Positions 8,499 through 38,075 of a DNA stretch of 64,000 nucleotides are shown here, piece after piece. Both the position numbers and the translations under genes were made by a program. Origin of the DNA: a virus (taxonomy: Duplodnaviria; Heunggongvirae; Uroviricota; Caudoviricetes); the IMG/VR virus record IMGVR_UViG_2802429052_000001, positions 27,845-91,844 of that record. One strand, 5' to 3'. The notes beneath the pieces are model-generated. The model made no database searches, was not told the origin of the DNA, and worked only from the letters and a program-made list of their open reading frames with translations. Numbering within the stretch: the stretch's first letter is position 1; each line of letters begins with the position of its first letter.

Positions 8499-8711
8499 AT
8501 GCCCAACGACAACGTACGCCTGGCAATCCACGCTGCGAGTCTGCTCGTCTTCATTATCGCGGTGGCAGTGCTCGTCGCTCTCGATAAGCTCCAGAGTGGC
8601 GATGGCCTGACGTGGATCGTCACCGGCGCCGGTCTCATCACAGCCGGGCTCTCCACAACCAAGATGATTCAGGACCGGCGCGGCAACGGGCCGGACGGGT
8701 CGGCTCAGTGA
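8499..8711 (+). CDS. Holin-like membrane protein (2 TM)
   Basis: Two hydrophobic helices, charged C-terminus, GAGGA RBS, position after lysins. Confidence 0.5.
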   Translation: MPNDNVRLAIHAASLLVFIIAVAVLVALDKLQSGDGLTWIVTGAGLITAGLSTTKMIQDRRGNGPDGSAQ

Positions 8712-9070
8712 TCCTGCCATCAATCCCGATCACCGAATGGCCCCCACTGCCTCCGCTGGCCCGCGACGGATGGGAACTGGCCACCTGGATCGTCATCGCC
8801 CTGGTCGTGCTCGTCCTCGGCCTGTACCGCAAGGATCTTCGCGCCGTGCTCCACCAGGTCAAGAACAGCCACAAGACCAACCTCCGCGACGACGTGGACG
8901 GAGTTGGTGACCGACTCGACGACGTGCTCGACCGGCTCGAAGAGTTCGGCCGCGACCTGCGCGGAATGCGCTCCGATATCGGCGGCCTACGCGGCGAGTT
9001 GAGAGAAGAACGCAAGGACCGCTTAGCATTCGAGCACCAGGTAACAGAGAAGCTGCGCGACTCAAACTAG
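8708..9070 (+). CDS. Membrane-anchored coiled-coil protein (holin/lysis regulator candidate)
   Basis: GTGA overlap with upstream holin; TM helix then charged coiled coil with DIGGLRGE motif shared with B 18991..19353. Confidence 0.5.
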   Translation: MILPSIPITEWPPLPPLARDGWELATWIVIALVVLVLGLYRKDLRAVLHQVKNSHKTNLRDDVDGVGDRLDDVLDRLEEFGRDLRGMRSDIGGLRGELREERKDRLAFEHQVTEKLRDSN

Positions 9071-9082
9071 CCGACCGGAAAC

Positions 9083-9117
9083 GGCCCTGCTCAAATCCAC
9101 TGAGCAGGGGCGTTTTT
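9083..9117. terminator. Rho-independent terminator between convergent lysis operon and toxin cassette
   Basis: GC hairpin CCCTGCTCA..TGAGCAGGG followed by TTTTT. Confidence 0.55.
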
Positions 9118-9130
9118 CGCCGTCTATCGG

Positions 9131-9877
9131 CTAGTGAGATACCTCATCGAGACCATTTTCCCGCAGCGTGGCCGTCATCGCCTCGACAACCCTTGCGGCC
9201 GGCCAATCATCCGGCGCTGAAATCAACGTGCCCCCGGCCAGCTCAGTCGCGGTTAGCCGGTCAACGAGATGGCTGACCGTACCAACCTCGGCGCTGATCC
9301 ACATTCGGTAGCCGACGCCGATCTTCCAGTTGCCACGACGAGCGAGACGACGCACTGCGAGATCCGCGAATTCGGTGGTTGCGGGCTCCCACGTCTCGAC
9401 CACCGCAGCTGTTACGGCGTCGGCATCCACAGACCGCAGCGCGTTCTCATGCGCTTCACGGAGCTCGACTGCCAGACGGCGGCGAGGTAGCCGCTGTCCG
9501 ACTGCTGGGTGACCGGCTGCGATACGCACCAGAGGGGAAACACGGGGGCCTGCGCCCGAAATGGTGAAGGAGTAACCCTCACCGGGTAGCGCATCACCGA
9601 TATCTTCCGAGGCCCCTACGAATTCACGAACGGGATGTTTGCGAACTATGTTGACCAGTTCGTCGGGGGAACCTTCCCACAGTTCCCAATCGTTGTCGGC
9701 CGCAATCTGCCAGCTCGATACGTCGAACGCTGATTGCAACGAACGGAGCAGGCTGTCGGTGCGTGCGGCGATCCATTCGGGAGATTCGCCAGCTGCTACC
9801 CGGAGAGCGAGCAGCGACGGCCGCGATGCGCCCCAGACTGGGTTCTGCACCTCGTTCACAGCTGCCACCTCACTCAT
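9131..9877 (-). CDS. Putative immunity protein for toxin 9874..11892
   Basis: Start overlaps toxin stop (ATGA); position and coupling typical of immunity genes; no recognisable domain. Confidence 0.5.
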   Translation of the reverse strand: MSEVAAVNEVQNPVWGASRPSLLALRVAAGESPEWIAARTDSLLRSLQSAFDVSSWQIAADNDWELWEGSPDELVNIVRKHPVREFVGASEDIGDALPGEGYSFTISGAGPRVSPLVRIAAGHPAVGQRLPRRRLAVELREAHENALRSVDADAVTAAVVETWEPATTEFADLAVRRLARRGNWKIGVGYRMWISAEVGTVSHLVDRLTATELAGGTLISAPDDWPAARVVEAMTATLRENGLDEVSH

Positions 9878-11892
9878 GGTTTCGGAGTGTAGATGACCTC
9901 TACACCGTAGACACCGTTTGAATCGAACAGGTCACGAAGGGCCGCGGCACCATAGGGATCGGATACGTGCCACTCAAGTCTCGCACCTGGTGGGAGCGCG
10001 CCGAGCTGTCGGTCAACTTGTTCGAGCGCCGACTCTGCCCGCCCCGTCCAGTACGCGTTGTCCGGCGCGAACGCCAAGCCCCGAAAGCCGTCCTTTGCTT
10101 CGAGAAAGACCTCTTGCGGGCCGCGATAGGTGTGTCCGTCGAAGGAAACTGGGGCTCCCGTATCTAGGTCATGTTGCACCCATTCGGGCAGTGCTCCGCT
10201 GGGTGTTCGTTCAATTCCGCCGATTTGTTCCTGGTACGGCATCCAGTCTTTGTCGAAGTTGTGGTTGATGTGCTTCCAGCCTGGCTCGGTGTCGCCCTTG
10301 TTCCATGTGGCCTCGGGGGTGCCGGGCGGCCATCCGCCCGGGTGGTGCGGGTCCCCGGAGGTGTAATGCTGGCCGCCGCCAGGATCGAACTCATATGGTG
10401 CGGGCGGCTGATACGACGGCGGGGTGTGGTCACCACCTGCTGAGGGGGCCTGATGGTCCATCACGGGCCAGGAATGCGCGCCGGCGCCGGGCTGCTCGAC
10501 GTGCGCGGACGTCGGTTCGTGGGTGCTGGATAGATCGTGGGTGATGGCGCGTCCTTCGGTGCCGGTGAGGTCGCCGAGCAGTCCGCGCGCACCGGCTGCC
10601 GCTTCGCCTCCGATTGCCCCGCCTCCGAGGGCTTCGGTGCCGTGGATGATGTTTTTGCCGATGAACTCGCCGGGGTGGTTGTAGAACTCTTTGGCTTGTT
10701 CGATGCCCATCTTGGGCGCGGCCAGTGGATCGCTCGTCAGCTCGTGAACCTGTTTGACTGCGCCCAGGCCTACGTCTTTCCATGCTTCGGCGACACCGGG
10801 AGCGCCCGGACCTGCTTGCCCGGTAAGAACTTTCGCTTGTTCGATCTGGCCGTCAATGGTTTTGGTGGCCTCATCGTTAGCGCGGCCCACGATGTCGTTG
10901 AACTGATCACCGGGTGAGTTATGCAGCGGCACCTGACCAGGGGTGCGCATCGGATCGGCGTCGGGGGCAAAACGCGGTGCCTGCGCCCGCTGGACCGCCT
11001 CATTGACCCGCTGCTCGATCTGGTTGGCGGGCACACCCTCGTGTTGCAGGCGCTCGCGGGTCGCCTGGGCGAACGCGGGAACATCGCGATCGGCCAAGGT
11101 GGGGGCGAGCTTGGCCGGTTTGGTCTTGTCGATATCCCCCACACCGGGCATGGCCCCGATGCTGCCGAGCTGATGCCCATCCACCGACGCGGTTTTCGGG
11201 TACAGCTCTTTGTAATTGATCGTCTCCGGGCCGCTGGCGGCTGCGGCTGGGGTGGTGCTGGCCGGGTCGGTGGCCTTGGGGTACTGCTGTTTGTAGTCGA
11301 TCGTCTCGGCTGCTGGTTGGCCTGGCGTGGCCTCGCGCAGGATCTTGCGCGCATCGACTAGGGCCGCTTTGGGGTTGATGCGGGAGAGCATTTTCTCGCG
11401 CGCGGCATCGGTCTGTGTCTTGAGTTCTTGGGTGGCCTTCTCCCACTTGGCGACATACTCGCGTAGTTCGCGCTCAGCGTCAGCCACGATCTGTTTGTTG
11501 CGGGCCACCGACTTTTCGCTTTCACCCTCAGCCGGGTGATAGGTCATCGTGAAGTCTTGACCGACCGTGACGCCCTCGCGCAACGCGTTGGTGACGATGT
11601 TCTGCCCGCTGGTCAACGGTGGCAACACCTCGAACTCGATGGTGGCGCTGACGAGCTTGACAGCATCTTCGGTGGTGTCGTCGGCGTTATCGGTGCCCTT
11701 GCAGTCATCGGCGGCGGCTTCCTGGGCGGCGCCCGCGAATTGCCCAGACCAGTAGGTTCCGTTCGGGGTGGTGGCCCACCGTTTGTAGTCGTCGTAGGTG
11801 GCTTTCAACGCCGCTGTGCGCGGCCGCAAACTGTCCACCACCGCCATATAGTCGTTGGCCTTCTTGGCCATGAACTCATCGAGGATTGTCAC
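9874..11892 (-). CDS. Polymorphic toxin (672 aa) with WXG100-like N-terminal domain (YWSGQ), Pro-rich linker and C-terminal toxin domain of unknown fold
   Basis: GTG start with GAGG RBS; N-terminal helical domain containing W-x-G; long low-complexity linker; distinct C-terminal about 120 aa. Confidence 0.65.
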   Translation of the reverse strand: MTILDEFMAKKANDYMAVVDSLRPRTAALKATYDDYKRWATTPNGTYWSGQFAGAAQEAAADDCKGTDNADDTTEDAVKLVSATIEFEVLPPLTSGQNIVTNALREGVTVGQDFTMTYHPAEGESEKSVARNKQIVADAERELREYVAKWEKATQELKTQTDAAREKMLSRINPKAALVDARKILREATPGQPAAETIDYKQQYPKATDPASTTPAAAASGPETINYKELYPKTASVDGHQLGSIGAMPGVGDIDKTKPAKLAPTLADRDVPAFAQATRERLQHEGVPANQIEQRVNEAVQRAQAPRFAPDADPMRTPGQVPLHNSPGDQFNDIVGRANDEATKTIDGQIEQAKVLTGQAGPGAPGVAEAWKDVGLGAVKQVHELTSDPLAAPKMGIEQAKEFYNHPGEFIGKNIIHGTEALGGGAIGGEAAAGARGLLGDLTGTEGRAITHDLSSTHEPTSAHVEQPGAGAHSWPVMDHQAPSAGGDHTPPSYQPPAPYEFDPGGGQHYTSGDPHHPGGWPPGTPEATWNKGDTEPGWKHINHNFDKDWMPYQEQIGGIERTPSGALPEWVQHDLDTGAPVSFDGHTYRGPQEVFLEAKDGFRGLAFAPDNAYWTGRAESALEQVDRQLGALPPGARLEWHVSDPYGAAALRDLFDSNGVYGVEVIYTPKP

Positions 11893-11902
11893 GGCTGGAG
11901 CC

Positions 11903-12214
11903 TCATGCGCGTTGCGGCGGCTGATAGATGCTCGGCAACTTGTAGTACCCGGCGTGCAGCTGCTCGGTGGTCAAGAAGCCTCTGTGTGCCTCGTCGTATA
12001 CATCGCTGATCGCCTCCAGGCGAGCGGCGGCGATGCGCTCCACATCCGAGATCGCTTTCGAGAAAGCCTCAAGCGCCGCCAAACCCGGATCCGCCCCAGG
12101 GGTCACATGGTCTGCCGGGATACGCCCCCGGATCTGCCTGGCACTCTCGCGCAGGTGCGGACCAATCTTGGCCATCGCGTCAAGGTCGGCCTGCAACACC
12201 TTGTCATCGCTCAC
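11903..12214 (-). CDS. Small alpha-helical accessory protein (WXG100/Lap-like helper candidate)
   Basis: GTG start with AAGGGGG RBS; about 100 aa helical protein immediately upstream of toxin. Confidence 0.4.
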   Translation of the reverse strand: MSDDKVLQADLDAMAKIGPHLRESARQIRGRIPADHVTPGADPGLAALEAFSKAISDVERIAAARLEAISDVYDEAHRGFLTTEQLHAGYYKLPSIYQPPQRA

Positions 12215-12330
12215 ACCTGCCCCCTTGCCCGATCTGGTTACGGGGCAGACTACAGGCACAGTAGGAAACCGGTCGTGCAATGCCGATCACCGGGCGGCAA
12301 TCTGTCAACAGCAGCGGGGTTGCCCGGGGC

Positions 12331-12573
12331 TCAGCGCCCGCGGGTCGCCAGCTCAGGGCACTCGCTCATGACCTCTTTGTCCACGACAGCCCTGGCAGCA
12401 TCGTAACTGCTGTAGAGGTGTTGATCTTCTGAGAACGTTAGGGCCACGTCGGTCGGCCCCATGCCGGGGTACTTGCGCAGCGTGTCACACACAATCCCAG
12501 TTAGACGAGGACTGGCGTGCGCAATTGGAGCGCACCCGAGAGTGATCACCGCGGCCAGCACGAGCGCCTTCAT
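12331..12573 (-). CDS. Small secreted protein (signal peptide, Cys pairs)
   Basis: N-terminal signal peptide MKALVLAAVITLGCAPIAHA; ATGA coupled to upstream gene. Confidence 0.45.
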   Translation of the reverse strand: MKALVLAAVITLGCAPIAHASPRLTGIVCDTLRKYPGMGPTDVALTFSEDQHLYSSYDAARAVVDKEVMSECPELATRGR

Positions 12574-12920
12574 TCGATGTGCCCCGGCTCGCCAGGAGGG
12601 ATAGTGTCAGCGGTGACGGTGTAGGTCTCGATCCCGCTCCGCTCGGCGGGGATCACGTCATGCGCCCACTGGGGGCAGCCACCGTAGTAGTAGACGCCGC
12701 CGCAACTGCTGTGGACATATTGCGGGTGCCAGTATCGGCGCGCTCGCTCCCATGATCCGTCCGGGTTGATCGGTCCGTCGCACATCTCGAGAATCTGTGG
12801 ATTGAGGCCGAGTAGCGGCACGCGCGCACAGCCGGGTGGTGGTGGGTCAGCATTGGCCGACGGGCTGAACATCAACGCCGCCGCGCAAATTGCGACCACA
12901 ACCCCCGTGATCTTGTTCAT
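12570..12920 (-). CDS. Secreted Cys-rich protein (116 aa)
   Basis: Signal peptide ending ANADPPPPGC; multiple Cys. Confidence 0.45.
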   Translation of the reverse strand: MNKITGVVVAICAAALMFSPSANADPPPPGCARVPLLGLNPQILEMCDGPINPDGSWERARRYWHPQYVHSSCGGVYYYGGCPQWAHDVIPAERSGIETYTVTADTIPPGEPGHIE

Positions 12921-12943
12921 GCGCGGATCGTACTGCGATTTAC

Positions 12944-13180
12944 TCAGCTTCCGGCCAGGAATGCCACCAGTCGATCTACCTTGTCGATCCCCGCGAAATG
13001 CCGGGGCGCCCTGCGACTATCCTGACCATCGGCCCACAAGATCACGCCGGTGTGCGCGTACATGACGGAAACCCACGACGCGGTGCCGGGGCGGCGGTAG
13101 ACGAGCTCGCCACTGTCGCCTCCCACGGCTACCCAGCCATGCACGCGTGCGGCCCGATCGACGGTCTGCTGTCCAGTCAT
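12944..13180 (-). CDS. Hypothetical protein next to integrase (possible recombination directionality factor)
   Basis: ATGA coupling with integrase stop; small size. Confidence 0.3.
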   Translation of the reverse strand: MTGQQTVDRAARVHGWVAVGGDSGELVYRRPGTASWVSVMYAHTGVILWADGQDSRRAPRHFAGIDKVDRLVAFLAGS

Positions 13181-14091
13181 GTCGATTGCCCTTCTGTTGC
13201 GATCGTCGAACGCCGCCGGGTGGCCTTCTTAATTCGGGGAGCGGCACACAGCCGGGAAGCGAGCGCATCGACGCCAGCAGCCCCGCGTCGCGCGGAATAT
13301 CCGAGGTAAACCATTGTGGTAGAGAGGCTTTGATGGCCGAGGGCTTCCTGTATGTAGCGGATATCCACGCCGGCCTCCAGCAGTGCCGTGGCGAATCTAT
13401 GGCGCAGTGTGTGCAGCGTGTAGGGGAGTTTCAGGTTCGCCAGAAACTCCGAAGACGTAACCGAGACATAGTTCGGAGTGACGGGCCCACCCTCGGGGCG
13501 CCGGAACATTGCGCCCGGCTGGCTCATCTGGTTACTCAGGCGCTCAAGCACAATCGGAGGTACCCGCACAATCCGCTGCTTCCCGCCCTTTCCGTGCACA
13601 GTCAGGAACGCGCCGCCGTCGCCGTCCGGCCGAAAATCGCTGCGCTCCATTGCCGCGATCTCTCCGGCGCGCAAACCGCAGTAGCCGGCCAGGAGTAGCC
13701 ACGCATGCATGTCCGACCCGATAGGCGCGGCCATCAGTGCGAGGTCGAGGTGATCGTCGGGGATCGGCCGGGGCATCCGGCGCTTGATCTTCGGCTGGAC
13801 CAGACGTGCGGATGGGTCCGCGGCGATGAGGTTGGCCCCGTGGGCCCAGCGGTAGAACGCGCAGACGTGGCTAGTGTAGGTCTGAACGCTTGAGGCGCAC
13901 ACCCGTAGGGAGCGCTGCCATGCCTCCAGCTGTTCGGGTGTGGCGTCCATCAATGCGGTGTCGCCCAGCCAGCGGTCGAGACGATCGAGTTGGCCGAGAC
14001 GGTGCTCGATGGTTTTCGGAGTCATGTTGCGGAGCTTTAGATACGCTGTGAATGCACTGAGAGCCGCCCCGGAGCTGTGAAGGTTTTCCAT
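13177..14091 (-). CDS. int: Tyrosine integrase (prophage A)
   Basis: SAM-like N-terminal domain, catalytic HTLRHRFAT (R..HxxR) and terminal Tyr in TTMVYL. Confidence 0.85.
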   Translation of the reverse strand: MENLHSSGAALSAFTAYLKLRNMTPKTIEHRLGQLDRLDRWLGDTALMDATPEQLEAWQRSLRVCASSVQTYTSHVCAFYRWAHGANLIAADPSARLVQPKIKRRMPRPIPDDHLDLALMAAPIGSDMHAWLLLAGYCGLRAGEIAAMERSDFRPDGDGGAFLTVHGKGGKQRIVRVPPIVLERLSNQMSQPGAMFRRPEGGPVTPNYVSVTSSEFLANLKLPYTLHTLRHRFATALLEAGVDIRYIQEALGHQSLSTTMVYLGYSARRGAAGVDALASRLCAAPRIKKATRRRSTIATEGQST

Positions 14092-14099
14092 GCCGAATA

Positions 14100-14330
14100 T
14101 GAATAGCGGCTAGGTGATCTTGATCTGACGGTTGTTGCAGGTCAGATGCTTTTTAGAGCGTAACCCGTGACCCTTTGCCGACCGGCGCAAGCCTGACTTA
14201 CGCGGTTCATACTCACGAGTATGAACCGTATAAGTCCGCGTTCCGGCGCGCCAGCTCAGGTCACGGTTTCCGCTCGGGGAAGCAACTGACCTGCAACAAG
14301 TCCACCCGTTCGGTTTCCTAGCAAAAGGAC
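14100..14330. repeat. Quasi-palindromic junction between divergent integrases (putative att/P-arm region); perfect 10-bp inverted repeat GTTCATACTC-ac-GAGTATGAAC at 14205..14226
   Basis: Arms about 80% identical as inverted copies (TTGTTGCAGGTCAG, CCGTGACC, CCGGCGC blocks). Confidence 0.55.
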
Positions 14331-14341
14331 GGGCTGTACTT

Positions 14342-15232
14342 ATGTCACCTGTGAATAATGACACCGTCGTCTCAGAGTTTGCTCGTTATCTGAAGCTGAA
14401 GAACTTCACAGCTAAAACGATCGAGCACCGCTTGGGGCAGATTGCTAGATTAGCTAGATGGCTTGGGGAAACATCTTTGCTGGAGGCCACCCCAGAGCAG
14501 CTTGAGGCCTGGCAAGGTTCGTTGCGGGTGTGCCCGTCTAGCATCCAGACCTACACGTCGCATGTTTGCACCTTCTATCAGTGGGCCTACCGCTGTGGTC
14601 GCACTAGCGAATACGTCGCAAAAGACTTGGTGCAACCGAAGATTCAGCGCCGCATGGCCCGGCCCATCCCCGAGGACCACTTGCGGATCGCGCTGACCGG
14701 CGCGCCTGTCGGGACTGACATCCATGCATGGCTGCTATTGGCCGGATACTGCGGTCTGCGCGCTGGGGAGATCGCGCAGATGTCACGCAACGACTTTCGC
14801 CCCGACGAAGGCGGCGGTGCCTTCCTGACCGTGCACGGCAAGGGAGGGAAGCAACGCATCGTCCGAGTTGCCCCCGAGGTCATGCAACGTCTGGCAATCC
14901 AGCTGAGCCGACCCGGCACCATGTTCTGCCGTCCCCGCGGCGGGCCAGTAACACCCAACTACGTCTCGGTCGTGGGTGCGGAATTCCTAACCAATCTCGG
15001 GCTCCCGTACACGCTGCACACCCTGCGACACAGGTTCGCGACCGTGCTCGCCGACGAAGGCGCGGACCTTCGCGATATCCAGGAATTGATGGGGCACGAG
15101 AGCCTGGCCACCACCATGCGGTATCTCGCCTACTCAACCCGACGTGGAGCGGCGTCCGTCGACTCGCTCGCGTCGCACCTGTGCCCCTCGCGGTCGTCGG
15201 CATCAAGAATGGAACAGCGCAGTCACAAGTAG
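14342..15232 (+). CDS. int: Tyrosine integrase (prophage B), about 70% identical to integrase A
   Basis: Same SAM-like N-terminus and HTLRHRFAT...Y catalytic motifs. Confidence 0.85.
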   Translation: MSPVNNDTVVSEFARYLKLKNFTAKTIEHRLGQIARLARWLGETSLLEATPEQLEAWQGSLRVCPSSIQTYTSHVCTFYQWAYRCGRTSEYVAKDLVQPKIQRRMARPIPEDHLRIALTGAPVGTDIHAWLLLAGYCGLRAGEIAQMSRNDFRPDEGGGAFLTVHGKGGKQRIVRVAPEVMQRLAIQLSRPGTMFCRPRGGPVTPNYVSVVGAEFLTNLGLPYTLHTLRHRFATVLADEGADLRDIQELMGHESLATTMRYLAYSTRRGAASVDSLASHLCPSRSSASRMEQRSHK

Positions 15233-15313
15233 GTGTCACATCTAGGAGGTCGGCCAGCGGACACGAGGGGATGCCCATATGGTCTCCGAATGCCCGCTCG
15301 CCGGTCCCCCTGG

Positions 15314-15595
15314 ATGAACGAACGCGCCCAGTTGCTCGTGCGCTATCTCGCCGAGCAGCACGCCCTGAACATGACCGAGGCCATGGCGCGAGAGCGTATT
15401 TCGGCGAAAGTCGACCTCACGGCCGAGCTGATGGGCATCAGCCGGCAGTCGGCCAAGGCCTACGTCGATGAGGACTACGTGCGCCGGATGGCCGACAGCT
15501 TCGCGGCAGCGGTCCGAGACCTACAAGCTCGGTCACCGCGCCGTGGACTGAGGGCGGTGCCCGACCAGTCTGGCATGGCGACGGAATGGCAATAA
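15314..15595 (+). CDS. Hypothetical HTH-like protein downstream of integrase (possible excisionase/regulator)
   Basis: ORF immediately after int; ISRQSAKAYV helix-turn-helix-like segment; start uncertain (15233, 15290 or 15314). Confidence 0.3.
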   Translation: MNERAQLLVRYLAEQHALNMTEAMARERISAKVDLTAELMGISRQSAKAYVDEDYVRRMADSFAAAVRDLQARSPRRGLRAVPDQSGMATEWQ

Positions 15596-15686
15596 CCCTG
15601 CGAACGCCGTCGAAACGTGCTGTTCGGATGGGTATCGCTTCGCACTCCTATTGCGGTGGCAAACTGGGCGGCGATACCATCCGGCA

Positions 15687-15998
15687 ATGAGTGGAGGGGT
15701 CCTCGGGGTTTCGCCAGAAGAGTTGCAGCGGGTTTCGCGATTGGTCACCGCGACCGCAGGCGGTTTGGCGACTGAGCTGGACGCCCTCGACGCCGAGGTG
15801 TCGCGATTTGTCGGCTCCGGTTGGTCTGGTGGGTCGGCGAGCGCGTTCACCGCGCGGTGGTTCCAGTGGTACGAGGGCGCCAAGCTGGTGCACCAGGGCC
15901 TTGCGCAGATGGGCAGCTTGTTGGCGAGCACCGGGGAGGCGTTCGTGGGCCAGGATGCGGCCACCGCCGCCAACGTCAACGCCGCTGGCGGAATGTAG
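15687..15998 (+). CDS. WXG100 family protein (Esx-like), first of pair
   Basis: About 100 aa helical hairpin with WSGGS W-x-G motif. Confidence 0.65.
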   Translation: MSGGVLGVSPEELQRVSRLVTATAGGLATELDALDAEVSRFVGSGWSGGSASAFTARWFQWYEGAKLVHQGLAQMGSLLASTGEAFVGQDAATAANVNAAGGM

Positions 15999-16007
15999 GG
16001 GGAGGGG

Positions 16008-16298
16008 ATGTCAGGTGAATTCGGCGTTGTGCCCGACGAGCTCATGCGGATCATCGAGCGCATGGCAGAGGTTGAGCAGCGAGCCGAGGCGTCGATAGCG
16101 GCCATGGACACCGAGGTGCACAACCTGCACGCCACCTTCACAGGTGAAGCTGCCACGGCCCACACGCAGGCGCACGAGAAGTGGGCCAAGGGCGCCGAGC
16201 AGATGCGCGAAGCACTCAGGGGCCTACGTGGCGCGAGCCACGCGGCGCACGGCAATTACACGGGCGCCGCTGCCAAGAACATGCAGAACTGGGCATAG
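16008..16298 (+). CDS. WXG100 family protein (Esx-like), second of pair
   Basis: 96 aa, HEKWAKGAEQ central motif, tandem with upstream WXG100 gene. Confidence 0.6.
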   Translation: MSGEFGVVPDELMRIIERMAEVEQRAEASIAAMDTEVHNLHATFTGEAATAHTQAHEKWAKGAEQMREALRGLRGASHAAHGNYTGAAAKNMQNWA

Positions 16299-16302
16299 CG
16301 CG

Positions 16303-17952
16303 ATGGCACCCCCGATTCATGTCGACCCGGTTGCCCTCGATGGCGCCGGTAGAACGGTCTCCAGCTCGGTGGGCGGGTGGGGCTCTGCGCTGTCGGCATT
16401 GCAGTCGGCGCTGTCGAGTTCGGCCGGTATGGGTGGGGATGACCCCGCCGGGATCGTGTTCGCGCGATCGTATGACTCGTCAGCCAAGGAACTCCTTGAG
16501 GCGATGGTGGACGTGTCCAACGGTGCGGGGCGGGCCGCTGACGGCATCCGGGCCTCGGCGACCAACTATTCGCGTGCCGAGGTGGCGTCCAACATCGACG
16601 GCAAGGGTGGCGACCCACTGCCCGCCGCCTCACCCACTCCCTCGGTGAAGGCCGGGACCCCGCCGTCTGCGGTGGGTAGCGATGTTGGCGACCCACCCGG
16701 TTGGTTTCTGGTGGAGCCGTTCATCGGAATGATTTGGCCAAACGGCGATTCGGCGAAGCTGCGCGCCGCTGGCACCGCGTGGACCGCTGCCGGTGCGGCA
16801 TTCACCGCTCAGCAGGCCGGGCTGGCGGGGGCGCAGGCAACCGCGCAGGCCCAGCAGATACCCGAAGGCCCCAAGATCGATAGCGCGTTCAAGACGATTG
16901 ACGGTGCTGTCGGCGAGGTCGGCGGCATGTGCAGCACCATGGGCGCCAAGCTCAACGACTACGCGGCCAAGATCGATACGGCGCATGCGTCGATACTGGA
17001 TCTGTTGGCCCGCTTGGTAAATCCGCTGACCGGTGCCAAACAGGTCGTGGACTGGATTACCGGCGAAGACGACGACGAAATAAAGAAAATCGCCACCGAC
17101 ATCCGCAACATCGTCAACCAGTTCAAGTCGGAAGTGCAGTCGCTCGCGCTGCTGCTGGCACCGATCATCCAGGGCGCATCGATGGTCATCGACACCCTAA
17201 AGTCGTTGGTACAGATGCAAGTTGAGCTTTTCGGCAACGAGATATACAACACCGTGGCCCCGCTAGTGAACGCCACTGCATCCTTTGGGCAGGCCATGAT
17301 CGACAACCCCGGCCAGACAATCCAGATGGCAGCTGGAGTCGGCATGATGGCGGTCGGCTACGACATGATGGCTGCGGCGGGCGTCGGTGAGGTCTTTACC
17401 GGTGGGGCTGCCACGCCGGTCGCTGCGCCCGTCGCTGTTGCCGGTGCTGGCCTGCTCGCTGGTGGCGCGGTCGTCGCCATACCGCCAGCCCTCGACCTCT
17501 CGAAAGAGGCTGCGGTCAACGGTGTGACGGTGATGGAGGCCCGGACTGGACGACCCGGCGAGGGCATCAACCGTGGCGACGACCGCGATTCCATCGGCAC
17601 GTTCACAGGCCGAGGCGGCACGGCGCGGGGATACGGCCGCCAACCAGAGGCGGAGGGTGTCGCCAAGTACAAAGACGAGACCGGGCGTTGGGTGAGCACC
17701 GAGACGAAAAAGTCGAGAGTGGACGGCGTTGACCATGGCCGCTACTACGACGGGCATGCCCGTAAGCCGGACGGTACGTACGAGGGTATCGAGGTGAAGT
17801 CGGGGGGTGCATCGAGGGACGGCCAGCAGAGGGCATTCGATGATGCTGTGTCGTATGAGAATCCGGCCTATGTGACGATCACCAATGAACAAGGCGTCGT
17901 GGAAACAGTGAAGATCACCTCGGTGAGAGTTGTGGAGGTTCCTGCAGAATGA
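16303..17952 (+). CDS. Polymorphic toxin (about 549 aa): helical N-terminal secretion domain, Ala/Gly-rich middle, C-terminal toxin domain (nuclease-like, unassigned)
   Basis: ATG right after WXG100 stop; long ORF; C-terminal about 130 aa module (DHGRYYDGHARKPDGTYEGIEVKSGG) distinct from toxin A. Confidence 0.65.
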   Translation: MAPPIHVDPVALDGAGRTVSSSVGGWGSALSALQSALSSSAGMGGDDPAGIVFARSYDSSAKELLEAMVDVSNGAGRAADGIRASATNYSRAEVASNIDGKGGDPLPAASPTPSVKAGTPPSAVGSDVGDPPGWFLVEPFIGMIWPNGDSAKLRAAGTAWTAAGAAFTAQQAGLAGAQATAQAQQIPEGPKIDSAFKTIDGAVGEVGGMCSTMGAKLNDYAAKIDTAHASILDLLARLVNPLTGAKQVVDWITGEDDDEIKKIATDIRNIVNQFKSEVQSLALLLAPIIQGASMVIDTLKSLVQMQVELFGNEIYNTVAPLVNATASFGQAMIDNPGQTIQMAAGVGMMAVGYDMMAAAGVGEVFTGGAATPVAAPVAVAGAGLLAGGAVVAIPPALDLSKEAAVNGVTVMEARTGRPGEGINRGDDRDSIGTFTGRGGTARGYGRQPEAEGVAKYKDETGRWVSTETKKSRVDGVDHGRYYDGHARKPDGTYEGIEVKSGGASRDGQQRAFDDAVSYENPAYVTITNEQGVVETVKITSVRVVEVPAE

Positions 17953-18419
17953 GGATTGACAAGCCAACCCACATCGCAGAATCAAACCTGGCCAAAATGC
18001 GTACCAGTGACTTTACGGAAGAAATACCAGGCCAGCTCGCAGCGGGGATAAATCGTTTAGGCACAAAGGGATACACGTACTACTCAATCTACCCGGTTGC
18101 GCCAGAGGTCCGATACGATGAGTTCCCATACTCGCCTGAGCGCATCCAAGCCTGTGGTAGGGATGGCAGGCTCACGGTCGAGATTAAACGGCTTGAGGCT
18201 GATGGTGTGCGGCGCCATTACACCATCGGAAGACCTTCTGCAGCAAACGAATCCGAGACCGAAGTGGTCTACAACGGCGATAGCGCTTACCCGGTACGCC
18301 CATCAGAGGTATTGACACCAACCGAGGCCATCAGACTATTCCTGGGCTACTACGACACAGGCGACGTTGCGCCAGGCTGGCACCTGCGCGAGCAACCCGA
18401 ATTCGCCGACGCCGGGTAG
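17949..18419 (+). CDS. Putative immunity protein for toxin 16303..17952
   Basis: ATGA overlap with toxin stop; 156 aa cytoplasmic protein. Confidence 0.5.
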   Translation: MRIDKPTHIAESNLAKMRTSDFTEEIPGQLAAGINRLGTKGYTYYSIYPVAPEVRYDEFPYSPERIQACGRDGRLTVEIKRLEADGVRRHYTIGRPSAANESETEVVYNGDSAYPVRPSEVLTPTEAIRLFLGYYDTGDVAPGWHLREQPEFADAG

Positions 18420-18493
18420 GGTGCATGTCCACCGCTGTGTGGGCACTCCTGTTACCACTTCTGACCTGTGCGTGATCTTGTAATCTGCCGTCC

Positions 18494-18922
18494 ATGGCGA
18501 GAGAGATGGGCACCCCGGCGAAAGCGTTGTGGGTGTGTCTGGGGGTATTTGTCGGGCTGCTGGCGTTCATGGCGGCGTGCGCAATAGGGCTGTCGGGCCA
18601 ATCCGGAAACGTTGGTGTGAGCGTTGAAGTGAGGCAAAAGTACGCGATCGAGACATGCCAGTCTGCTCTCATGAAGCGTATGCGTGACCCTGAGAGTGCG
18701 AAGTTCGCCGATGAGGTGGCCCGTGAAGGTGTGGCGCATGGAGGTGGGCGTGATCCCGAGTTGGACTACTCGCCCGACCGCGGTGATATCTACTTTACGG
18801 TGACGGGCAATGTCAACGCCAAGAACGCGTTTGGTGGTTACACGGGGATGCGTCCCTACACCTGCGATGCGGTGGTGGACAGAAACGGCACAACGCAAAG
18901 CCGGGCCCGCGTGCTGGATTAG
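18494..18922 (+). CDS. Lipoprotein/secreted protein (142 aa)
   Basis: N-terminal TM/signal with lipobox-like MAACA; last gene before terminator. Confidence 0.45.
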   Translation: MAREMGTPAKALWVCLGVFVGLLAFMAACAIGLSGQSGNVGVSVEVRQKYAIETCQSALMKRMRDPESAKFADEVAREGVAHGGGRDPELDYSPDRGDIYFTVTGNVNAKNAFGGYTGMRPYTCDAVVDRNGTTQSRARVLD

Positions 18923-18937
18923 TGCACTAGAAACACT

Positions 18938-18976
18938 AATAGCGCCCCTCACCGGGTCGGGGTGAGGGGCGCTATT
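18938..18976. terminator. Strong bidirectional terminator between toxin cassette (+) and lysis operon (-)
   Basis: 16-bp perfect GC-rich stem AATAGCGCCCCTCACC..GGTGAGGGGCGCTATT followed by TTTCGTT. Confidence 0.65.
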
Positions 18977-18990
18977 TCGTTGGCCTGCAA

Positions 18991-19353
18991 TTAGTGTGGC
19001 CAGCGCTCGATCAGCTCTCGGATGTGCTGGTCTGCCCTCCCGCGCTCGGTGCGCTCGGTTCGCATTTCCTCGCGCAGGCCTCCGATGTCGCGGGCCTGCT
19101 GGCCCTGTTGTTCCTCGATTCGCTTGATCCCCTTGAGAATTTCGTCGAGATCAACGCGCATGTTGGTCTCATGGTCGTTCTCGGTCTGCTCACGGATGGC
19201 TCCGGTATCGGCGGCGATAGCGCCCAGCTTCTTACGGTGCGCGAACGTGGCCGTGGCCCAGGCCACCGCGACCGATCCGCAGATCGGGGCGAGTAGCGCC
19301 ATCGTGAGTGCCGCGAACTGCTTTGGGGTATCGATGCTGCTGACATCCACCAT
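18991..19353 (-). CDS. Membrane-anchored coiled-coil protein (homolog of A 8708..9070)
   Basis: TM helix plus coiled coil; DIGGLREE motif; follows holin. Confidence 0.5.
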   Translation of the reverse strand: MVDVSSIDTPKQFAALTMALLAPICGSVAVAWATATFAHRKKLGAIAADTGAIREQTENDHETNMRVDLDEILKGIKRIEEQQGQQARDIGGLREEMRTERTERGRADQHIRELIERWPH

Positions 19354-19367
19354 TTCGGTCAGCAGGC

Positions 19368-19664
19368 TCACCGGCCGCTGCCCGCCACGAGCTTGAACAG
19401 GCTGGACGGTACGACCGCCTTGGTGGCCGAGGCGGTACCGGATCGGCCCAGCTTGATCGATGCCGCAGAGAAGATGAGCGATACCGCCAGCGTTCCGGCG
19501 CCGACATTGATACCGCTCTGCCAATCGATCTCGGTCAGGGCTGCGTTCACCGCGGCGTCGGCCAGGTTGGCGCCGACGATGAAGCCACCCGCGAACGTCT
19601 TGATAGCGCGCTCGGCAGCGTCAATGGCGGCGTCTTTGAGCCAGGGCGGGATAGTGATGTGCAT
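19368..19664 (-). CDS. Holin-like membrane protein
   Basis: GAGAGGA RBS 6 nt before ATG; amphipathic/TM segments; unrelated in sequence to the holin-like gene of A. Confidence 0.5.
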   Translation of the reverse strand: MHITIPPWLKDAAIDAAERAIKTFAGGFIVGANLADAAVNAALTEIDWQSGINVGAGTLAVSLIFSAASIKLGRSGTASATKAVVPSSLFKLVAGSGR

Positions 19665-19954
19665 GACGGTCCTCTCGGCGGTTGGGTTGTGGATAACTGC
19701 GTTTGGGCAGTTCAGGGGGAGTTTTTTCGATGGCGCCATGGATAGGGAGCGCTACGGTGTGGGGAGTCCCTGCGCGCTCTCCTCGCGCGGGGCCGATCGG
19801 GCGTAGCATCTACGTTTGTTCGGCGAAGGTGCTTTGAGCCTGAATTGACAGGCTTGAGACGGCACCCCGGCCTAGACGGTGGAACGAAGCTCGGCGCGCA
19901 GCGGTTGCAAACGCAGCGCATAGAGCGGAAGGCGTGCGAACGCTGCAGACACCC

Positions 19955-19986
19955 AGTCGGCTGGGTTCAATTCCCAGGCGCCGAAC
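19955..19986 (+). other. tRNA-like fragment (T-arm CTGGG-TTCAATT-CCCAG plus acceptor-like GCGCCGA) in 330-bp noncoding gap
   Basis: Canonical G53/TTCAATT/C61 T-loop signature; full cloverleaf could not be folded by eye. Confidence 0.3.
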
Positions 19987-19995
19987 TTTTCGGAA

Positions 19996-21180
19996 CTAAG
20001 CCGCCACGGCGGGGGTGCGGCTGGCCCAGTCGCGGACGTGCTGGATGGCGAGCCCGAGATAGGTTTGGCCGGGCCAGACCTCGCGGTACTCGTATTGAAT
20101 GTGTGCGGCGGTCGGTGGGCTGGTGGTGACGAAACGCAGCGCGATCAGGGCGGCCTGTGCCGCGGCCGCGGGCCCGGTGAGCTTGTTGATATCGCCCCAG
20201 CCGAGTAGTCCCTGTAGACCGCCGAGGACTATGGGTAGGCCGAGCGCGGCGATACCGTTGGGGCCGCCAGTGAGCGCGCCGAATATGGCGGGCAGCTCGA
20301 TGCCTAATGCCTTGGCGGCGATTTCGGGGATTTTGGGCAGGATGGCGCCTGCGGCCCCGAGTGGGTCGGTGATCTGGAATGCGGTCACCATGTCGAAACA
20401 GTCGTCCATGATGTCCCCGACAACACCGAGGGGGATGTTGCCGTACATGTCGCCGGGGTCGGTGAGCCAGCAGTGCCGGTAGTCGGTGATGTCGCCGTAG
20501 CGCCGTGACGAGATGCCTTGCCCAGCAAGGACCGGGCCGCCGTAGTAGCTGCCACCGTGGGGTCGGGTGGGGTCACCGATGCTGAATGAACACAGGTAGT
20601 TGTTCGGGTAGTGCTCCAGCAGCCACACGCGGAATCTGGCCGCCGCGACGGCGCCGGCCGAGTATCCACCGATGACGACCTTGGTGTTGGGGTTGGCGCG
20701 GTAGCGCTCCAGGAAGATGCGCTGTGCGTCGGCGACCGCGATCTCGACGGCCTTGGCCATTGAGATGTCACCGGGGCTGCCCGCGGCGCCGACCGGCAGA
20801 CCGCCCATGGTCGCGGCGAATTCGGGGTGCACTTCCTCGACGAGGTTGGCCACCGCTTGCATGACGCGAGATACGTAGTCCTGGCCGATGATGCCTCCGG
20901 TGCCCCGGAACATCAGCCCGAGGTGGCGATTGGCGGGCGGGGCCGGGGGCGTGATGCCCAGCGCGCGTAGGTCATCGTCGGACACCTGCCCGGTGGGGAT
21001 CTGGCCGGTGCGGCGCTGATACTCGGCGGCCCACAGGGCAGCACGCGGCCCGAACTCGTCGGTGTCTTGCGGAAGCGGCCCCAACAGCCGGGTGTACAGC
21101 GGGCCAAACCAGTCGTTCATCACGGCCCGCCACCGACGGACCGTTTCATTGCGGTCTCCGATGCGGATCATTTGGACCAC
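19996..21180 (-). CDS. lysB: Lysin B, mycolylarabinogalactan esterase with PG-binding N-terminus
   Basis: GYSAG serine esterase motif; PG-binding-like N-terminus; overlaps lysin A stop. Confidence 0.7.
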   Translation of the reverse strand: MVQMIRIGDRNETVRRWRAVMNDWFGPLYTRLLGPLPQDTDEFGPRAALWAAEYQRRTGQIPTGQVSDDDLRALGITPPAPPANRHLGLMFRGTGGIIGQDYVSRVMQAVANLVEEVHPEFAATMGGLPVGAAGSPGDISMAKAVEIAVADAQRIFLERYRANPNTKVVIGGYSAGAVAAARFRVWLLEHYPNNYLCSFSIGDPTRPHGGSYYGGPVLAGQGISSRRYGDITDYRHCWLTDPGDMYGNIPLGVVGDIMDDCFDMVTAFQITDPLGAAGAILPKIPEIAAKALGIELPAIFGALTGGPNGIAALGLPIVLGGLQGLLGWGDINKLTGPAAAAQAALIALRFVTTSPPTAAHIQYEYREVWPGQTYLGLAIQHVRDWASRTPAVAA

Positions 21181-21836
21181 ACCTTGTCACGCAGCGTCAT
21201 ACCTTTTGATGCCCAGTCGGGATGTCCCGGGCCGAGTTGTTCGGCGATGTATTCCAGTAGCTTGCGGTCGGGAGCTTCTTTGACGAATTTCTGGTGTAGC
21301 GCAATAGGATCGACCGCCGGGGGCTGCGCGGGCGCGTAGATTCCGAGGTATCCGGCGCGCAGCTTGTCGGCGAACGCGTCATTGCGTTTGTCGCCCTCGG
21401 GCCAGGCCATCTGGTAGTGCATCTCGTCGGGGCGCGACCAGTCGCGGCCCCAGAACACCGAGCCCTCGAACAGGGCCAGGCCCTTGCGGACCTTGGCCTG
21501 TGTGGCGGCGTCCATGGTGTACCGCTGCCAGGGGTACTTGGGCGCCATCACGTCAACGGCTGTGGCCGACAGGTGATTTGATCCGTCGTTGCGCCCGGGA
21601 GTGCCGAGCACGTCATTGTCGAGTGACCAGCCCCATACTGGGGAGGTGATCTCCTCGACGTTGCGGTCATACCAGTACAGCCAGGCGCCGAGGATGATCA
21701 GCGGGGCGCCCTTGCGCAGGGGCGCGGTGTCGACGAGGTACAGCTCGGGTATGCGTACAATGTCGCATTCGTCCCGATTGCAGCACCGCCAGCCGTCCTC
21801 TGTGTGGGTGTTGCCGTTCACGGTGCGGAAACTCAT
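21168..21836 (-). CDS. lysA: Lysin A, LAS/M15-type zinc peptidase domain (SNHLSATAVD ... HYQM)
   Basis: SxHxxxxAxD and downstream His motifs typical of M15/VanY-like peptidases; ATGA coupling to upstream small membrane gene. Confidence 0.6.
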   Translation of the reverse strand: MSFRTVNGNTHTEDGWRCCNRDECDIVRIPELYLVDTAPLRKGAPLIILGAWLYWYDRNVEEITSPVWGWSLDNDVLGTPGRNDGSNHLSATAVDVMAPKYPWQRYTMDAATQAKVRKGLALFEGSVFWGRDWSRPDEMHYQMAWPEGDKRNDAFADKLRAGYLGIYAPAQPPAVDPIALHQKFVKEAPDRKLLEYIAEQLGPGHPDWASKGMTLRDKVWSK

Positions 21837-21976
21837 CGGGTGTACTTCCTTTCGATGCGTGGGTCGATCTCTTGGGCGTAGGACGAGAGCTGGTCGGATG
21901 CCCACCAGCCGAGCCGGAATGAGAGGGCGGCAAGTGCGGCGTAGAAGGCCGCGTATTTGAGCAGCTGGCGGGCCAT
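21833..21976 (-). CDS. Small membrane protein (48 aa), homolog of A 6259..6405, coupled to lysin A
   Basis: MARQLLKYAAFYAALAALSFRLGWWASDQLSSYAQEIDPRIERKYTR; about 75% identical to the A copy. Confidence 0.5.
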   Translation of the reverse strand: MARQLLKYAAFYAALAALSFRLGWWASDQLSSYAQEIDPRIERKYTR

Positions 21977-21978
21977 GA

Positions 21979-22341
21979 CTACACCCCCCAGAACTTGAAT
22001 GTTGGTGTGACATCGACTTGTAACGGCTGTGATCCGTCGTTGACGGTCAGGGAGACCGGTAGTGTCTCGGTGCGCAGCAGGGTCGCGCCGTTGAACACGC
22101 CGTACCGGTTGATCACCGTGCCGTTGGCCACGGTGCCGCCAGGTACCGAGATGGTCACCAGCGAGCCGGTGGATGATGCCTTGTCGATGCCGGATTCGGT
22201 GACATCGACTGGGGTGGCCCAGGTGGTGTCGGCGTAGGCGGTGCCTACGCGGGTGGAACCGGCGAATAGGCCGATTCGGTTGCCGAGTGCGGTGATTGCG
22301 GCGCAGCAGGCGCGTCGGTGCGCGCCTTGGTATTCGGACAT
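21979..22341 (-). CDS. Minor tail protein (120 aa)
   Basis: Position; loose similarity to A 5879..6262. Confidence 0.45.
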   Translation of the reverse strand: MSEYQGAHRRACCAAITALGNRIGLFAGSTRVGTAYADTTWATPVDVTESGIDKASSTGSLVTISVPGGTVANGTVINRYGVFNGATLLRTETLPVSLTVNDGSQPLQVDVTPTFKFWGV

Positions 22342-22360
22342 GCGGGGGCCTTTCTGTTGG

Positions 22361-22816
22361 TTACGGGGTTTCCCAGGTGGTCCATCCGCTGATGCGCGGG
22401 GTGTATCCCAGCGCGACGTTGCGGGGTGATTCGGTCGTCCATTGGTGGTCTCTGTAGGGGGCGATAACGGATTTGAGGTAGGCGCATCCGAGTTGGCCCT
22501 CGATCATCAGGCCGCCGAAGGGCTGGTAATCGCCTGTGATGACGTAGGTTTCGTTGACCTGGTACCAGAGGTAATCCTCGGTGTTGACCGGAAGGCTGTC
22601 GTCGTCAAAGTCCCAGATGGTGGTGTTGAGCTTGGGGACGTATTGCAGGAGGCATTCGCCGACGTTCGGGTCGTGTGGGGCCGCGTCGAGGTAGTAGTTT
22701 CCGTTGATCAGTCCGATTGGGCCGTCGTTCATGTAGATGTCGAAATAGGAGGTTTCGCGTCTGCTGTAGAAGTGGATTCGGAATGAGTAGTTGTCGATGT
22801 CGTTGGGGTTGGCCAT
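22361..22816 (-). CDS. Minor tail protein (151 aa)
   Basis: Strong AGGAGGGA RBS before ATG at 22816; aromatic-rich beta protein. Confidence 0.5.
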   Translation of the reverse strand: MANPNDIDNYSFRIHFYSRRETSYFDIYMNDGPIGLINGNYYLDAAPHDPNVGECLLQYVPKLNTTIWDFDDDSLPVNTEDYLWYQVNETYVITGDYQPFGGLMIEGQLGCAYLKSVIAPYRDHQWTTESPRNVALGYTPRISGWTTWETP

Positions 22817-22838
22817 GTTTGGGTGGTCCCTCCTGCGG

Positions 22839-27177: not shown

Positions 27178-27192
27178 GTGGGTTACCTCCGG

Positions 27193-28899: not shown

Positions 28900-28939
28900 G
28901 AGATGGCCCCTGGATCGCAGGGGCGCAACGCATTGCGCA

Positions 28940-34359: not shown

Positions 34360-34376
34360 GGTTCACCTCCTGATCA

Positions 34377-34685
34377 TTAGTCGCCAAAAGCGTCTTCTAA
34401 CAGCTCTTCTCGCGCCGATTCGATGAATTCGTTTTCAGCGGAGTCAAGTTCGTGCTGTTTGCGAGATGCCAGCGGCGATGAGTACTTGGTGTACATGTAC
34501 TCGTGCGGGGTGCCGGTGTACTTGCTGGCGCGATATGCCGCCAGCTCGTTGTGCGTCTCGGCGGCGATCTTCTGCATGACCGTCCAGTCGCCGTCGCGCC
34601 CAAACGGCGGCGGCGCATGGGTTTTGAACTCCGAGTCTTCGGGTAGCTGGTGGATCAGCGACAGTAGTTGACGGCTGGAGAGCAC
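34377..34685 (-). CDS. Tail assembly chaperone, frameshift-extension (T) portion
   Basis: Frame stays open upstream to overlap end of 34798..35316; position before tape measure. Confidence 0.5.
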   Translation of the reverse strand: MLSSRQLLSLIHQLPEDSEFKTHAPPPFGRDGDWTVMQKIAAETHNELAAYRASKYTGTPHEYMYTKYSSPLASRKQHELDSAENEFIESAREELLEDAFGD

Positions 34686-34797
34686 CAGGGCGCCGCGCTC
34701 ATCACGCGTGCCCTGGTGCCAATCAGCGATGCGTACACCGCGAAAACGTAGATCAGCCTCGATGGCGTTGGGCCATCGACTCCAAAGTGCGACTGCC

Positions 34798-35316: not shown

Positions 35317-35355
35317 CTGGCGGGCGCAGCCCGACGCCCGCCGGGTGAGGGTTCA

Positions 35356-38071: not shown

Positions 38072-38075
38072 GAAA

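Follow-up and report, generated by a model that had tools for sequence, protein, structure and literature searches.

A probable ESX-secreted PEST1 polymorphic toxin cassette with a Tox-REase-5 head, carried by a MabN-like Mycobacterium abscessus prophage in its integrase-proximal slot

Polymorphic toxin cassettes of Mycobacterium abscessus prophages adjoin the attachment junctions and are expressed in lysogens of relatives of the element described here, including prophiGD43A-3 (Dedrick et al. 2021). They occur in 19-21 configurations, among which prophiGD57-1 was cited as the Tox-REase-5 example (Dedrick et al. 2021 mBio, Fig. 4A), and their exchange between prophage clusters has been documented (Amarh et al. 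2023). These PEST systems were sorted into three groups (mSystems 2023, PMC10654092): in PEST1 and PEST2 a single partner is present and a PE/PPE-like heterodimer is predicted, and PEST3 systems, which are CpnT-like, have two WXG100 effectors. The PEST1 archetype, prophiGD43A-6 (gp91/gp92), was modeled with AlphaFold as a heterodimer like PE25/PPE41 that superimposes on 2G38, and toxicity relieved by the immunity gene in M. smegmatis was reported for the prophiGD43A-6 and prophiGD17-1 cassettes only (PMC10654092). The window analyzed here (64,000 nucleotides (nt); positions 27,845 to 91,844 of IMG/VR virus record IMGVR_UViG_2802429052_000001) contains two prophages, A and B. The region 9131..12214 of prophage A, hereafter cassette A, is very probably (probability of about 0.85) a three-gene ESX-secreted PEST1 polymorphic toxin cassette, located in the integrase-proximal slot of a MabN-like M. 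abscessus prophage.

The closest relatives of cassette A were found among GenBank phage records by megablast. The segment 9131..12264 displayed 95.6% nt identity to prophiGD25-1, prophiGD39-2, prophi57-1 and the released phage phiGD57-1, and the cassette was 95.3% identical in nt to prophiGD43A-3. Amino acid (aa) identities to prophiGD25-1 were 95.6% for the immunity protein (gp69), 98.1% for the toxin (gp70) and 99.0% for the partner (gp71), which are named in GenBank 'polymorphic toxin immunity protein', 'polymorphic toxin protein with Tox-REase-5 domain and WXG motif' and 'WXG motif protein', respectively. Genes 69-71 of the MabC prophages prophiGD57-1, prophiGD25-1 and prophiGD39-2 (MW584181, MW584148 and MW584154, respectively) are the same three genes as in cassette A, with the same order, spacing and Tox-REase-5 head, and are likewise located between the lysis genes and the integrase. 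The backbones differed, with MabN-like tail, lysis and integrase genes in the window and MabC genes in the prophiGD25-1 group, and so did the interval between partner and integrase, which held 80-aa, CDGP and 78-aa genes in the window but a single helix-turn-helix (HTH) gene in the MabC prophages. A comparison with known polymorphic toxins, proposed in a first-pass annotation of this DNA, led to M. abscessus prophage cassettes that were already published and annotated. A toxin 100% identical to that of cassette A was also already in NCBI (P0001), from M. abscessus subsp. massiliense. The string of genes from integrase to immunity gene recurred in several independent public assemblies, so the arrangement is not peculiar to this window.

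Comparisons with less close cassettes displayed two blocks of genes that had recombined differently. The PEST1 archetype type (prophi88-1, that is, the GD43-6 type) has three genes, one WxG domain and one PE-like partner, as in cassette A. In the comparison with prophi88-1, toxin aa 8-454 were 91.5% identical to gp91 and the partner was 84% identical to gp92, but the head and the immunity gene were unrelated (Tox-REase-5 and 248 aa in cassette A, an ill-defined Ntox15-like head and 207 aa in the archetype). The nucleotide match of the toxin N-terminus also included prophi_GD43-6 gene 91, and the partner was 71% identical to a McProf 'WXG-100 family protein'. The MabF prophages prophi62-2, prophiGD11-3 and prophiGD08-3 harbored the same Tox-REase-5 head and immunity gene, with about 95% nt identity over 9117..10379. 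In prophi62-2, gp80 (annotated 'polymorphic toxin immunity protein') shared 98.8% aa identity with the 248-aa protein, whereas the toxin N-terminal domain (51.5% identity for the toxin overall) and the partner (56%, 128 aa) had diverged. Partner with N-terminus and C-terminus with immunity gene are thus separately exchangeable modules, and the cassette is a mosaic of them; the two modules recombine independently, as would be expected for a polymorphic toxin. More broadly, toxin homologues encoded at least five different toxin domains on a common N-terminal scaffold: Tox-REase-5 (PF15648), GH-E/HNH (PF14410), Endonuclease_NS_2 (PF13930), TNT (PF14021) and glutamine-deamidase (PF15644). Cassette A therefore shares with PEST1 systems an N-terminal domain with WxG, a homologous partner and interchangeable heads with co-varying immunity genes. 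It also shares their gene order (partner, toxin and immunity gene on the same strand, the first two 10 bp apart and the last two overlapping by ATGA) and their location, 1-5 kb from the integrase (13177..14091) and the att core (14204..14227).

The 672-aa toxin showed the organization proposed in the first-pass annotation, with an N-terminal W-x-G motif, a Pro-rich linker and an unrelated C-terminal domain, which Pfam now assigns to Tox-REase-5. The YWSGQ motif spans aa 47-51 (W48-S-G50 at 11743..11751, W48 at 11749..11751); W48 was present in 117 and G50 in 118 of the 121 aligned homologues, and both were invariant in the curated alignment. In the AlphaFold2 (AF2) model of aa 1-190 (mean predicted local distance difference test score (pLDDT) of 75), helices span residues 3-41, 51-105 and 126-171; the WxG loop between the first two was modeled with low confidence, and a short beta-hairpin separates the second from the third, both of them long. 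The linker has two Pro-rich stretches, aa 186-330 (12% Pro) and aa 451-549 (16%), with a Gly-rich section in between, and the toxin had no signal peptide. A second motif, Y118-x-P120-x-E122 (YHPAE, 11527..11541), was noted in the predicted beta-hairpin after helix 2. Its P120 was invariant, while Y118 and E122 were present in 92 and 88 of the 121 homologues, respectively; the motif resembles the type VII export signal YxxxD/E, but is not located in a helix C-terminal tail.

The match of the C-terminal domain to Pfam Tox-REase-5 scored 29.7 bits against a gathering score of 25, with aa 550-645 covering profile positions 1-94 of 95. The FDG and EAK motifs that form the Tox-REase-5 signature (Zhang et al. 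2012) were found at F584-D585-G586 and E598-A599-K600, and the GHTYRGPQEVF segment pointed out in the first-pass annotation begins at aa 586. Both D585 and K600 were conserved in at least 97% of 38 homologous C-termini, and FDG/EAK can be taken as the PD-(D/E)xK-type catalytic core of the predicted nuclease. PDB sequence searches with the toxin, the partner and the immunity protein gave chance-level matches only, and found no solved structure.

The 103-aa protein encoded upstream of the toxin (11903..12214) corresponds to the helical accessory of about 100 aa that had been anticipated, and is the true accessory of the toxin. It belongs to phrog_18870 (E 3e-44). Its relatives are named 'WXG motif protein' or 'ESX complex protein' in GenBank, while the partner itself has no tryptophan. 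The AF2 model (mean pLDDT 69) displayed two helices (2-30 and 42-78) in a helix-turn-helix hairpin, which looks like a PE-type helix-turn-helix; the best PDB matches of this model by Foldseek were PE25 of PE25-PPE41 (E 0.56-1.1, not significant), followed by Esx proteins. A profile search of 1.84 billion representative proteins with the partner family retrieved only 15 relatives. The Pfam scan of ten of these 15 remote relatives gave sub-threshold EspC hints only (T7SS_ESX_EspC, E 0.0013-0.01 in two of them), and a further sub-threshold hint was obtained for DUF6317 (E 0.024, one homologue). The canonical YxxxD/E export signal was sought at the C-terminal end of the partner and was not found. 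As to family, the partner is not a WXG100/ESAT-6 protein by sequence: no tryptophan was found in the mature region of about 103 aa of the partner or of its 18 homologue clusters, PF06013 was absent at E <= 0.1, and the hhalign probability against the WXG100 proteins of cassette B was 0.2%.

The 248-aa gene had been put forward as an ATGA-coupled immunity candidate, and this proposal was strengthened, as the gene travels with the toxin C-terminus into prophi62-2 and diverges in step with the heads. Diverged Tox-REase-5 heads (43-51% identity) precede diverged immunity homologues (52-57% identity), which is the co-variation expected of a cognate pair, and by these comparisons the gene behaves as the cognate immunity gene of the toxin. 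Its product had no signal peptide, and its homologues formed 123 clusters at E <= 0.001; among the 120 clusters listed, the named members were mycobacterial, bar one probable contaminant. None of these 120 clusters carried an immunity-family Pfam annotation, and only two longer proteins had any precomputed Pfam hit (PF15648, PF27060). Neither the immunity protein nor two homologues of 52-57% identity had a Pfam match even at E <= 10. Membership in Imm52, the immunity family associated with Tox-REase-5 (Zhang et al. 2012), was rejected at the sequence level on the same absence of a Pfam match at E <= 10. The C-terminal part of the family, of about 70 residues, was nearly identical among homologues that are 52-57% identical overall (RRGNWKIGVGYR.WIS.EVG...LISAPDDWPA.RVVEA.TATLRENGLDEV.H), and a toxin-specific surface may be formed by the variable N-terminal part.

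If cassette A functions as a PEST1 system, its three genes would be expressed in the lysogen. The toxin N-terminal domain (about aa 1-175, with the W48-x-G50 loop) and the 103-aa partner would form a PE/PPE-like helical bundle, which the type VII (ESX) secretion system of the host would recognize and export. The Pro/Gly-rich linker (about aa 186-549) would bear the Tox-REase-5 nuclease (aa 550-645), cutting nucleic acid in a recipient, and the translationally coupled 248-aa protein would bind and neutralize the nuclease in the producer. The elements of this scheme observed in the present analysis are homology, motifs, modular recombination, toxin-immunity co-variation and the independent assortment of neighboring secreted-protein genes (see below). 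Lysogenic expression, immunity-relieved toxicity and the AlphaFold PE25/PPE41-like heterodimer come from the literature on close relatives, and the ESX dependence, nuclease activity and target-cell identity of cassette A are inferred.

Several results weigh against this scheme. The partner has no WXG motif, and PF06013 was absent at E <= 0.1 for the partner and at E <= 10 for its homologues, while a cassette B protein used as positive control scored 60 bits. Alignment of the partner family with the two WXG100 proteins of cassette B by hhalign gave a probability of 0.2%, a weak test because of the low diversity of the alignment (Neff 1.3). The toxin N-terminal domain matched neither Pfam WXG100 nor WXG100_2. 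Structural comparison gave no significant match for the partner (all Foldseek matches at E >= 0.56) or for the toxin N-terminus (E >= 0.08). With the toxin N-terminus, Foldseek retrieved long-helix proteins of a generic kind (BAR domains), PPE15 and PPE41 ranking only 23rd and 46th; this outcome is uninformative rather than evidence against the model. As the Foldseek matches were not significant, the structural evidence is consistent with the published PE/PPE-like PEST1 model without being independent proof of it. The 248-aa protein fits no described immunity family, by Pfam or by its homologue clusters. The toxicity and immunity proposed for cassette A are those of relatives, and ESX export of PEST systems was deduced from motifs (Dedrick et al. 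2021; PMC10654092), the authors of the latter paper calling the roles unclear. Finally, the candidate anti-phage protein PDC-M17A, represented by three PADLOC models, was matched by toxin aa 534-671 (9874..10290; best E 1.2e-13), which would fit an intracellular role.

Such a role would mean that the cassette acts inside the lysogen through its nuclease and inhibitor, as a toxin-antitoxin-like or abortive-infection system for anti-phage defense or prophage stabilization. The cassette is prophage-borne, adjoins the integrase and has lysogenically expressed relatives, viral defense is among the possibilities listed by the mSystems 2023 authors (PMC10654092), and the title of a bioRxiv preprint reports Tox-REase-5 domains in defensive toxin-antitoxin contexts. 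The PDC-M17A match, which concerns the C-terminal 130 residues of the toxin, covers the nuclease domain only, however, and an intracellular function hardly accounts for a dedicated partner and for the roughly 550 conserved residues that make up WxG domain and linker. A scaffold that carries TNT, deaminase-type and several nuclease heads is moreover typical of exported polymorphic toxins (Zhang 2012). Intracellular action is consequently considered unlikely, and export of the toxin with its partner is preferred.

The remaining alternatives concern mainly the genes located between the partner and the integrase. At the N-termini of the 80-aa and 116-aa proteins, a basic residue precedes a strongly hydrophobic stretch (Kyte-Doolittle maxima over 12 residues of 2.6 and 2.9, against 0.7-0.9 in neighbors). 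Both proteins also have AxA-type cleavage motifs (AHA↓S in the 80-aa protein, and ANA↓D), likewise lacking in neighbors, and two and four cysteines, respectively, in their mature parts; a lipobox-like TLGC was also present in the 80-aa protein. Both are accordingly predicted to carry signal peptides, and the two small Cys-containing secreted proteins described in the first-pass annotation stand as candidates on these features. The 116-aa protein matched Pfam CDGP (PF24238) with 54.6 bits against 24.3, its aa 30-116 corresponding to profile positions 1-68 of 68, and belongs to phrog_549; it is alone among the two secreted proteins in a curated family. A literature search on the CDGP domain returned nothing relevant. 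No Pfam, PHROG or NCBIfam match was obtained for the 80-aa protein or for the 78-aa open reading frame (ORF) at 12944..13180, which was absent from the first-pass annotation.

From 12331 rightwards, the window displayed 71-75% nt identity to two MabN prophages, prophiGD53-3 and prophi62-3, at their right ends. The 80-aa protein was 82.5% identical in aa to prophiGD53-3 gp69 and 80% to prophi62-3 gp65, the CDGP protein 36% to gp70 and gp66 at the same position, and the 78-aa ORF 84% to gp71 and 61% to gp67, respectively. The integrase shared about 80% aa identity with those of prophiGD53-3 (gp72) and prophi62-3, against 69% with the MabC integrase, and the gene order and ATGA couplings of the module were the same in the MabN prophages. 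The module was present in prophiGD53-3, where no polymorphic toxin was found anywhere in the 41.9-kb record, and in prophi62-3, where an unrelated toxin cassette occupied the same slot. Beside the same or a related toxin, the secreted-protein genes were absent from prophiGD25-1, prophi62-2, prophi88-1, L013 and L014, and prophiGD25-1 harbored the HTH gene in their place next to a near-identical toxin cassette. Occurrence of the module without the toxin or with another toxin, and of the toxin without the module, indicates that the secreted-protein genes assort independently of the toxin. The 80-aa, CDGP and 78-aa genes and the integrase are therefore best read, from these comparisons, as a MabN integrase-proximal module with no specific part in the toxin system. 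The tail genes of prophage A were 95.7% identical to those of prophi62-3, and prophage A as a whole is a MabN-like backbone into which a PEST1/Tox-REase-5 cassette was swapped at the standard slot. In MabC prophages, an HTH DNA-binding gene occupies the position equivalent to the 78-aa ORF, which could be a recombination directionality factor.

A link between the secreted pair and the toxin has nevertheless to be weighed in two forms. In the first, the pair would be co-transcribed with the PEST1 cassette, as no terminator was detected between them, and would have become functionally linked to the toxin in this mosaic, for example through envelope remodeling that aids release or self-protection, with Sec-exported helpers then assisting a type VII toxin; separately, the 248-aa protein would represent an undescribed, mycobacteria-restricted Tox-REase-5 immunity fold distinct from Imm52. 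This combined proposal is regarded as improbable. In the second, which is the one suggested in the first-pass annotation and appears slightly more improbable still, the two proteins (12331..12920) would be dedicated toxin accessories with Sec-type signal peptides that replace the WXG100 pair and imply a non-type VII route. The genes indeed lie immediately 5' of the partner gene on the same strand, and no obvious terminator intervenes; their exact arrangement with the cassette recurs in several assemblies, and a WXG motif is missing from the partner. Across genomes, however, the two genes do not follow the toxin: the module is homologous to that of the toxin-less prophiGD53-3 and lies beside an unrelated toxin in prophi62-3, whereas prophiGD25-1 has an HTH gene instead and the related Tox-REase-5 cassettes in L013 and L014 have no secreted-protein genes. 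A 66-bp segment that matches neither source also parts the two homology blocks, and the toxin has no signal peptide and keeps the invariant WxG. The remaining proposal, a phage structural or lysis protein such as a tail fiber or tail-associated nuclease, has the toxin gene just past the lysis genes and the caudoviruses among Tox-REase-5 taxa (Zhang 2012) in its favor, but can be practically dismissed: the toxin is transcribed opposite to the structural/lysis operon with a hairpin between, annotations and publications treat all its near relatives as polymorphic toxins, and the structural homology named in the first-pass annotation as decisive against a toxin was found neither by PHROG nor by PDB sequence search.

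The features of the locus are collected in Table 1. All the ORFs described in the first-pass annotation were present on the minus strand, as were the YWSGQ motif and the ATGA coupling. At the left edge, the hairpin lies between the minus-strand cassette and a convergent plus-strand membrane/minor-tail-like gene (8612..9070), and is likely a bidirectional terminator. Homology to the prophiGD25-1 cassette spans 9131 to 12264 and homology to MabN prophages starts at 12331-12333, so that the segment in between can be placed as the right-hand recombination boundary of the cassette slot. A sigma-70 consensus scan found no convincing cassette promoter; a TANNNT-like TAGTCT was noted by eye only, just 5' of the partner gene. 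The Rfam scan of 8800..14500 gave no match, and NCBIfam gave nothing useful for any cassette protein.

Table 1. Features of cassette A and its surroundings (positions in the window; strand left empty where none applies)
Feature	Position	Strand	Description
Integrase	13177..14091	-	Tyrosine integrase of prophage A, MabN type, 304 aa; PF00589, E 4.5e-20
78-aa ORF	12944..13180	-	ATGA overlap with integrase stop codon; MabN integrase module
116-aa CDGP-domain protein	12570..12920	-	Predicted secreted; neighbor, outside toxin cassette
80-aa predicted secreted protein or lipoprotein	12331..12573	-	ATGA-coupled to 116-aa gene; neighbor, outside toxin cassette
Junction segment, 66 bp	12265..12330		Matches neither prophiGD25-1-type cassette nor MabN integrase module
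Small helical putative export partner, 103 aa, GTG start	11903..12214	-	Ends 10 bp upstream of toxin start
Toxin, 672 aa, GTG start	9874..11892	-	Probable PEST1-type polymorphic toxin
Predicted toxin N-terminal secretion domain, about aa 1-175	11368..11892	-	WxG helical domain
Predicted Tox-REase-5 nuclease domain, aa 550-645	9958..10245	-	Pfam PF15648
Candidate immunity protein, 248 aa	9131..9877	-	ATG overlaps toxin stop as ATGA, 9874-9877
G+C-rich hairpin	9085..9109		Terminator-like site; left edge of cassette slot
att core, 24 bp	14204..14227		Near-perfect palindrome GGTTCATACTC-AC-GAGTATGAACC; context, outside cassette

Beyond the cassette, prophages A (MabN-like) and B (prophi52-1, MabC) meet head to head at their integrase ends, without intervening host DNA (14092..14341). 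Both GenBank prophage models end on the 24-bp palindromic core at 14204..14227, the match to which was unique in the window, and two repressor 3' fragments around this att core form an imperfect palindrome of about 168 bp (14132..14299). The MabN and MabC clusters both use attB-13, and published tandem prophages (T36-2a/2b) are located at attB-2. The palindromic core could let a second phage integrate inverted into the attR of the first. The same head-to-head layout was observed in GCA_900136975.1, GCA_900136335.1 and Logan ERR494964. The window ends inside an apparent second att core copy of prophage B (63981..64000, …AGTTCTTACTCACGAGTAA), so the host flank of the double prophage is not visible in it.

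The same integrase-to-immunity string was also observed in a different context in L008 (GCA_900136995.1, FVNY01000002.1; 4022..5716 and 14411..15800). There, a 132-aa gene and an HTH gene adjoin integrase A on its upstream side, in what looks like an intact repressor-integrase (attP-like) arrangement, and past a truncated 74-aa ORF the tail genes give way to host-like adh_short and glyoxalase genes; the locus may represent a copy of prophage A that was rearranged or has decayed. In prophage B, ARAGORN called an 87-nt tRNA-Ala(GGC) at 25652..25738 (minus strand), the unusual length of which suggests a false positive; zero tRNAs are given for prophiGD52-1 in Table 1 of Dedrick 2021.

PEST cassettes may affect how M. 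abscessus lysogens compete, and also their part in disease and their phage resistance, which bears on phage therapy. The cassette, its Tox-REase-5 head, the modular exchange and the contrast with two-WXG100 cassettes are already contained in GenBank annotations and in PMC8092301, PMC9934374 and PMC10654092. To these the window adds one further combination, a MabN-like prophage with a MabC/MabF-type Tox-REase-5 PEST1 cassette, and a clear negative, in that the neighboring secreted-protein genes stand outside the toxin system.

Within the window, cassette A can be set against the cassette of prophage B, which is prophi52-1 (99.9% identical over 14205..39000). Both are integrase-proximal toxin-immunity cassettes. 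Cassette B (15.6-18.4 kb) encodes two PF06013 WXG100 proteins, an immunity protein and a toxin of 549 aa that weakly matched WXG100_2, and in its layout matches the four-gene PEST3-like systems (archetype prophiGD17-1). Small helical partners encoded upstream of a WxG-bearing toxin are common to cassette A, cassette B and the EsxE-EsxF-CpnT system of M. tuberculosis, but cassette A has one partner without WXG, whereas cassette B has two genuine WXG100 genes and is CpnT-like. The distinct secretion logic proposed in the first-pass annotation for the two cassettes held for their different partners, but its basis in the signal-peptide proteins did not, the distinction resting on the 103-aa partner; the difference is that between PEST1, with one PE-like partner, and a two-WXG100 PEST3-like system, as already published (PMC10654092). 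The PPE proteins of the M. tuberculosis PE25-PPE41 complex (PDB 2G38, 4W4K) also have a WxG loop between long helices, although without detectable sequence homology to cassette A, the toxin of which adds a 500-residue linker and toxin extension.

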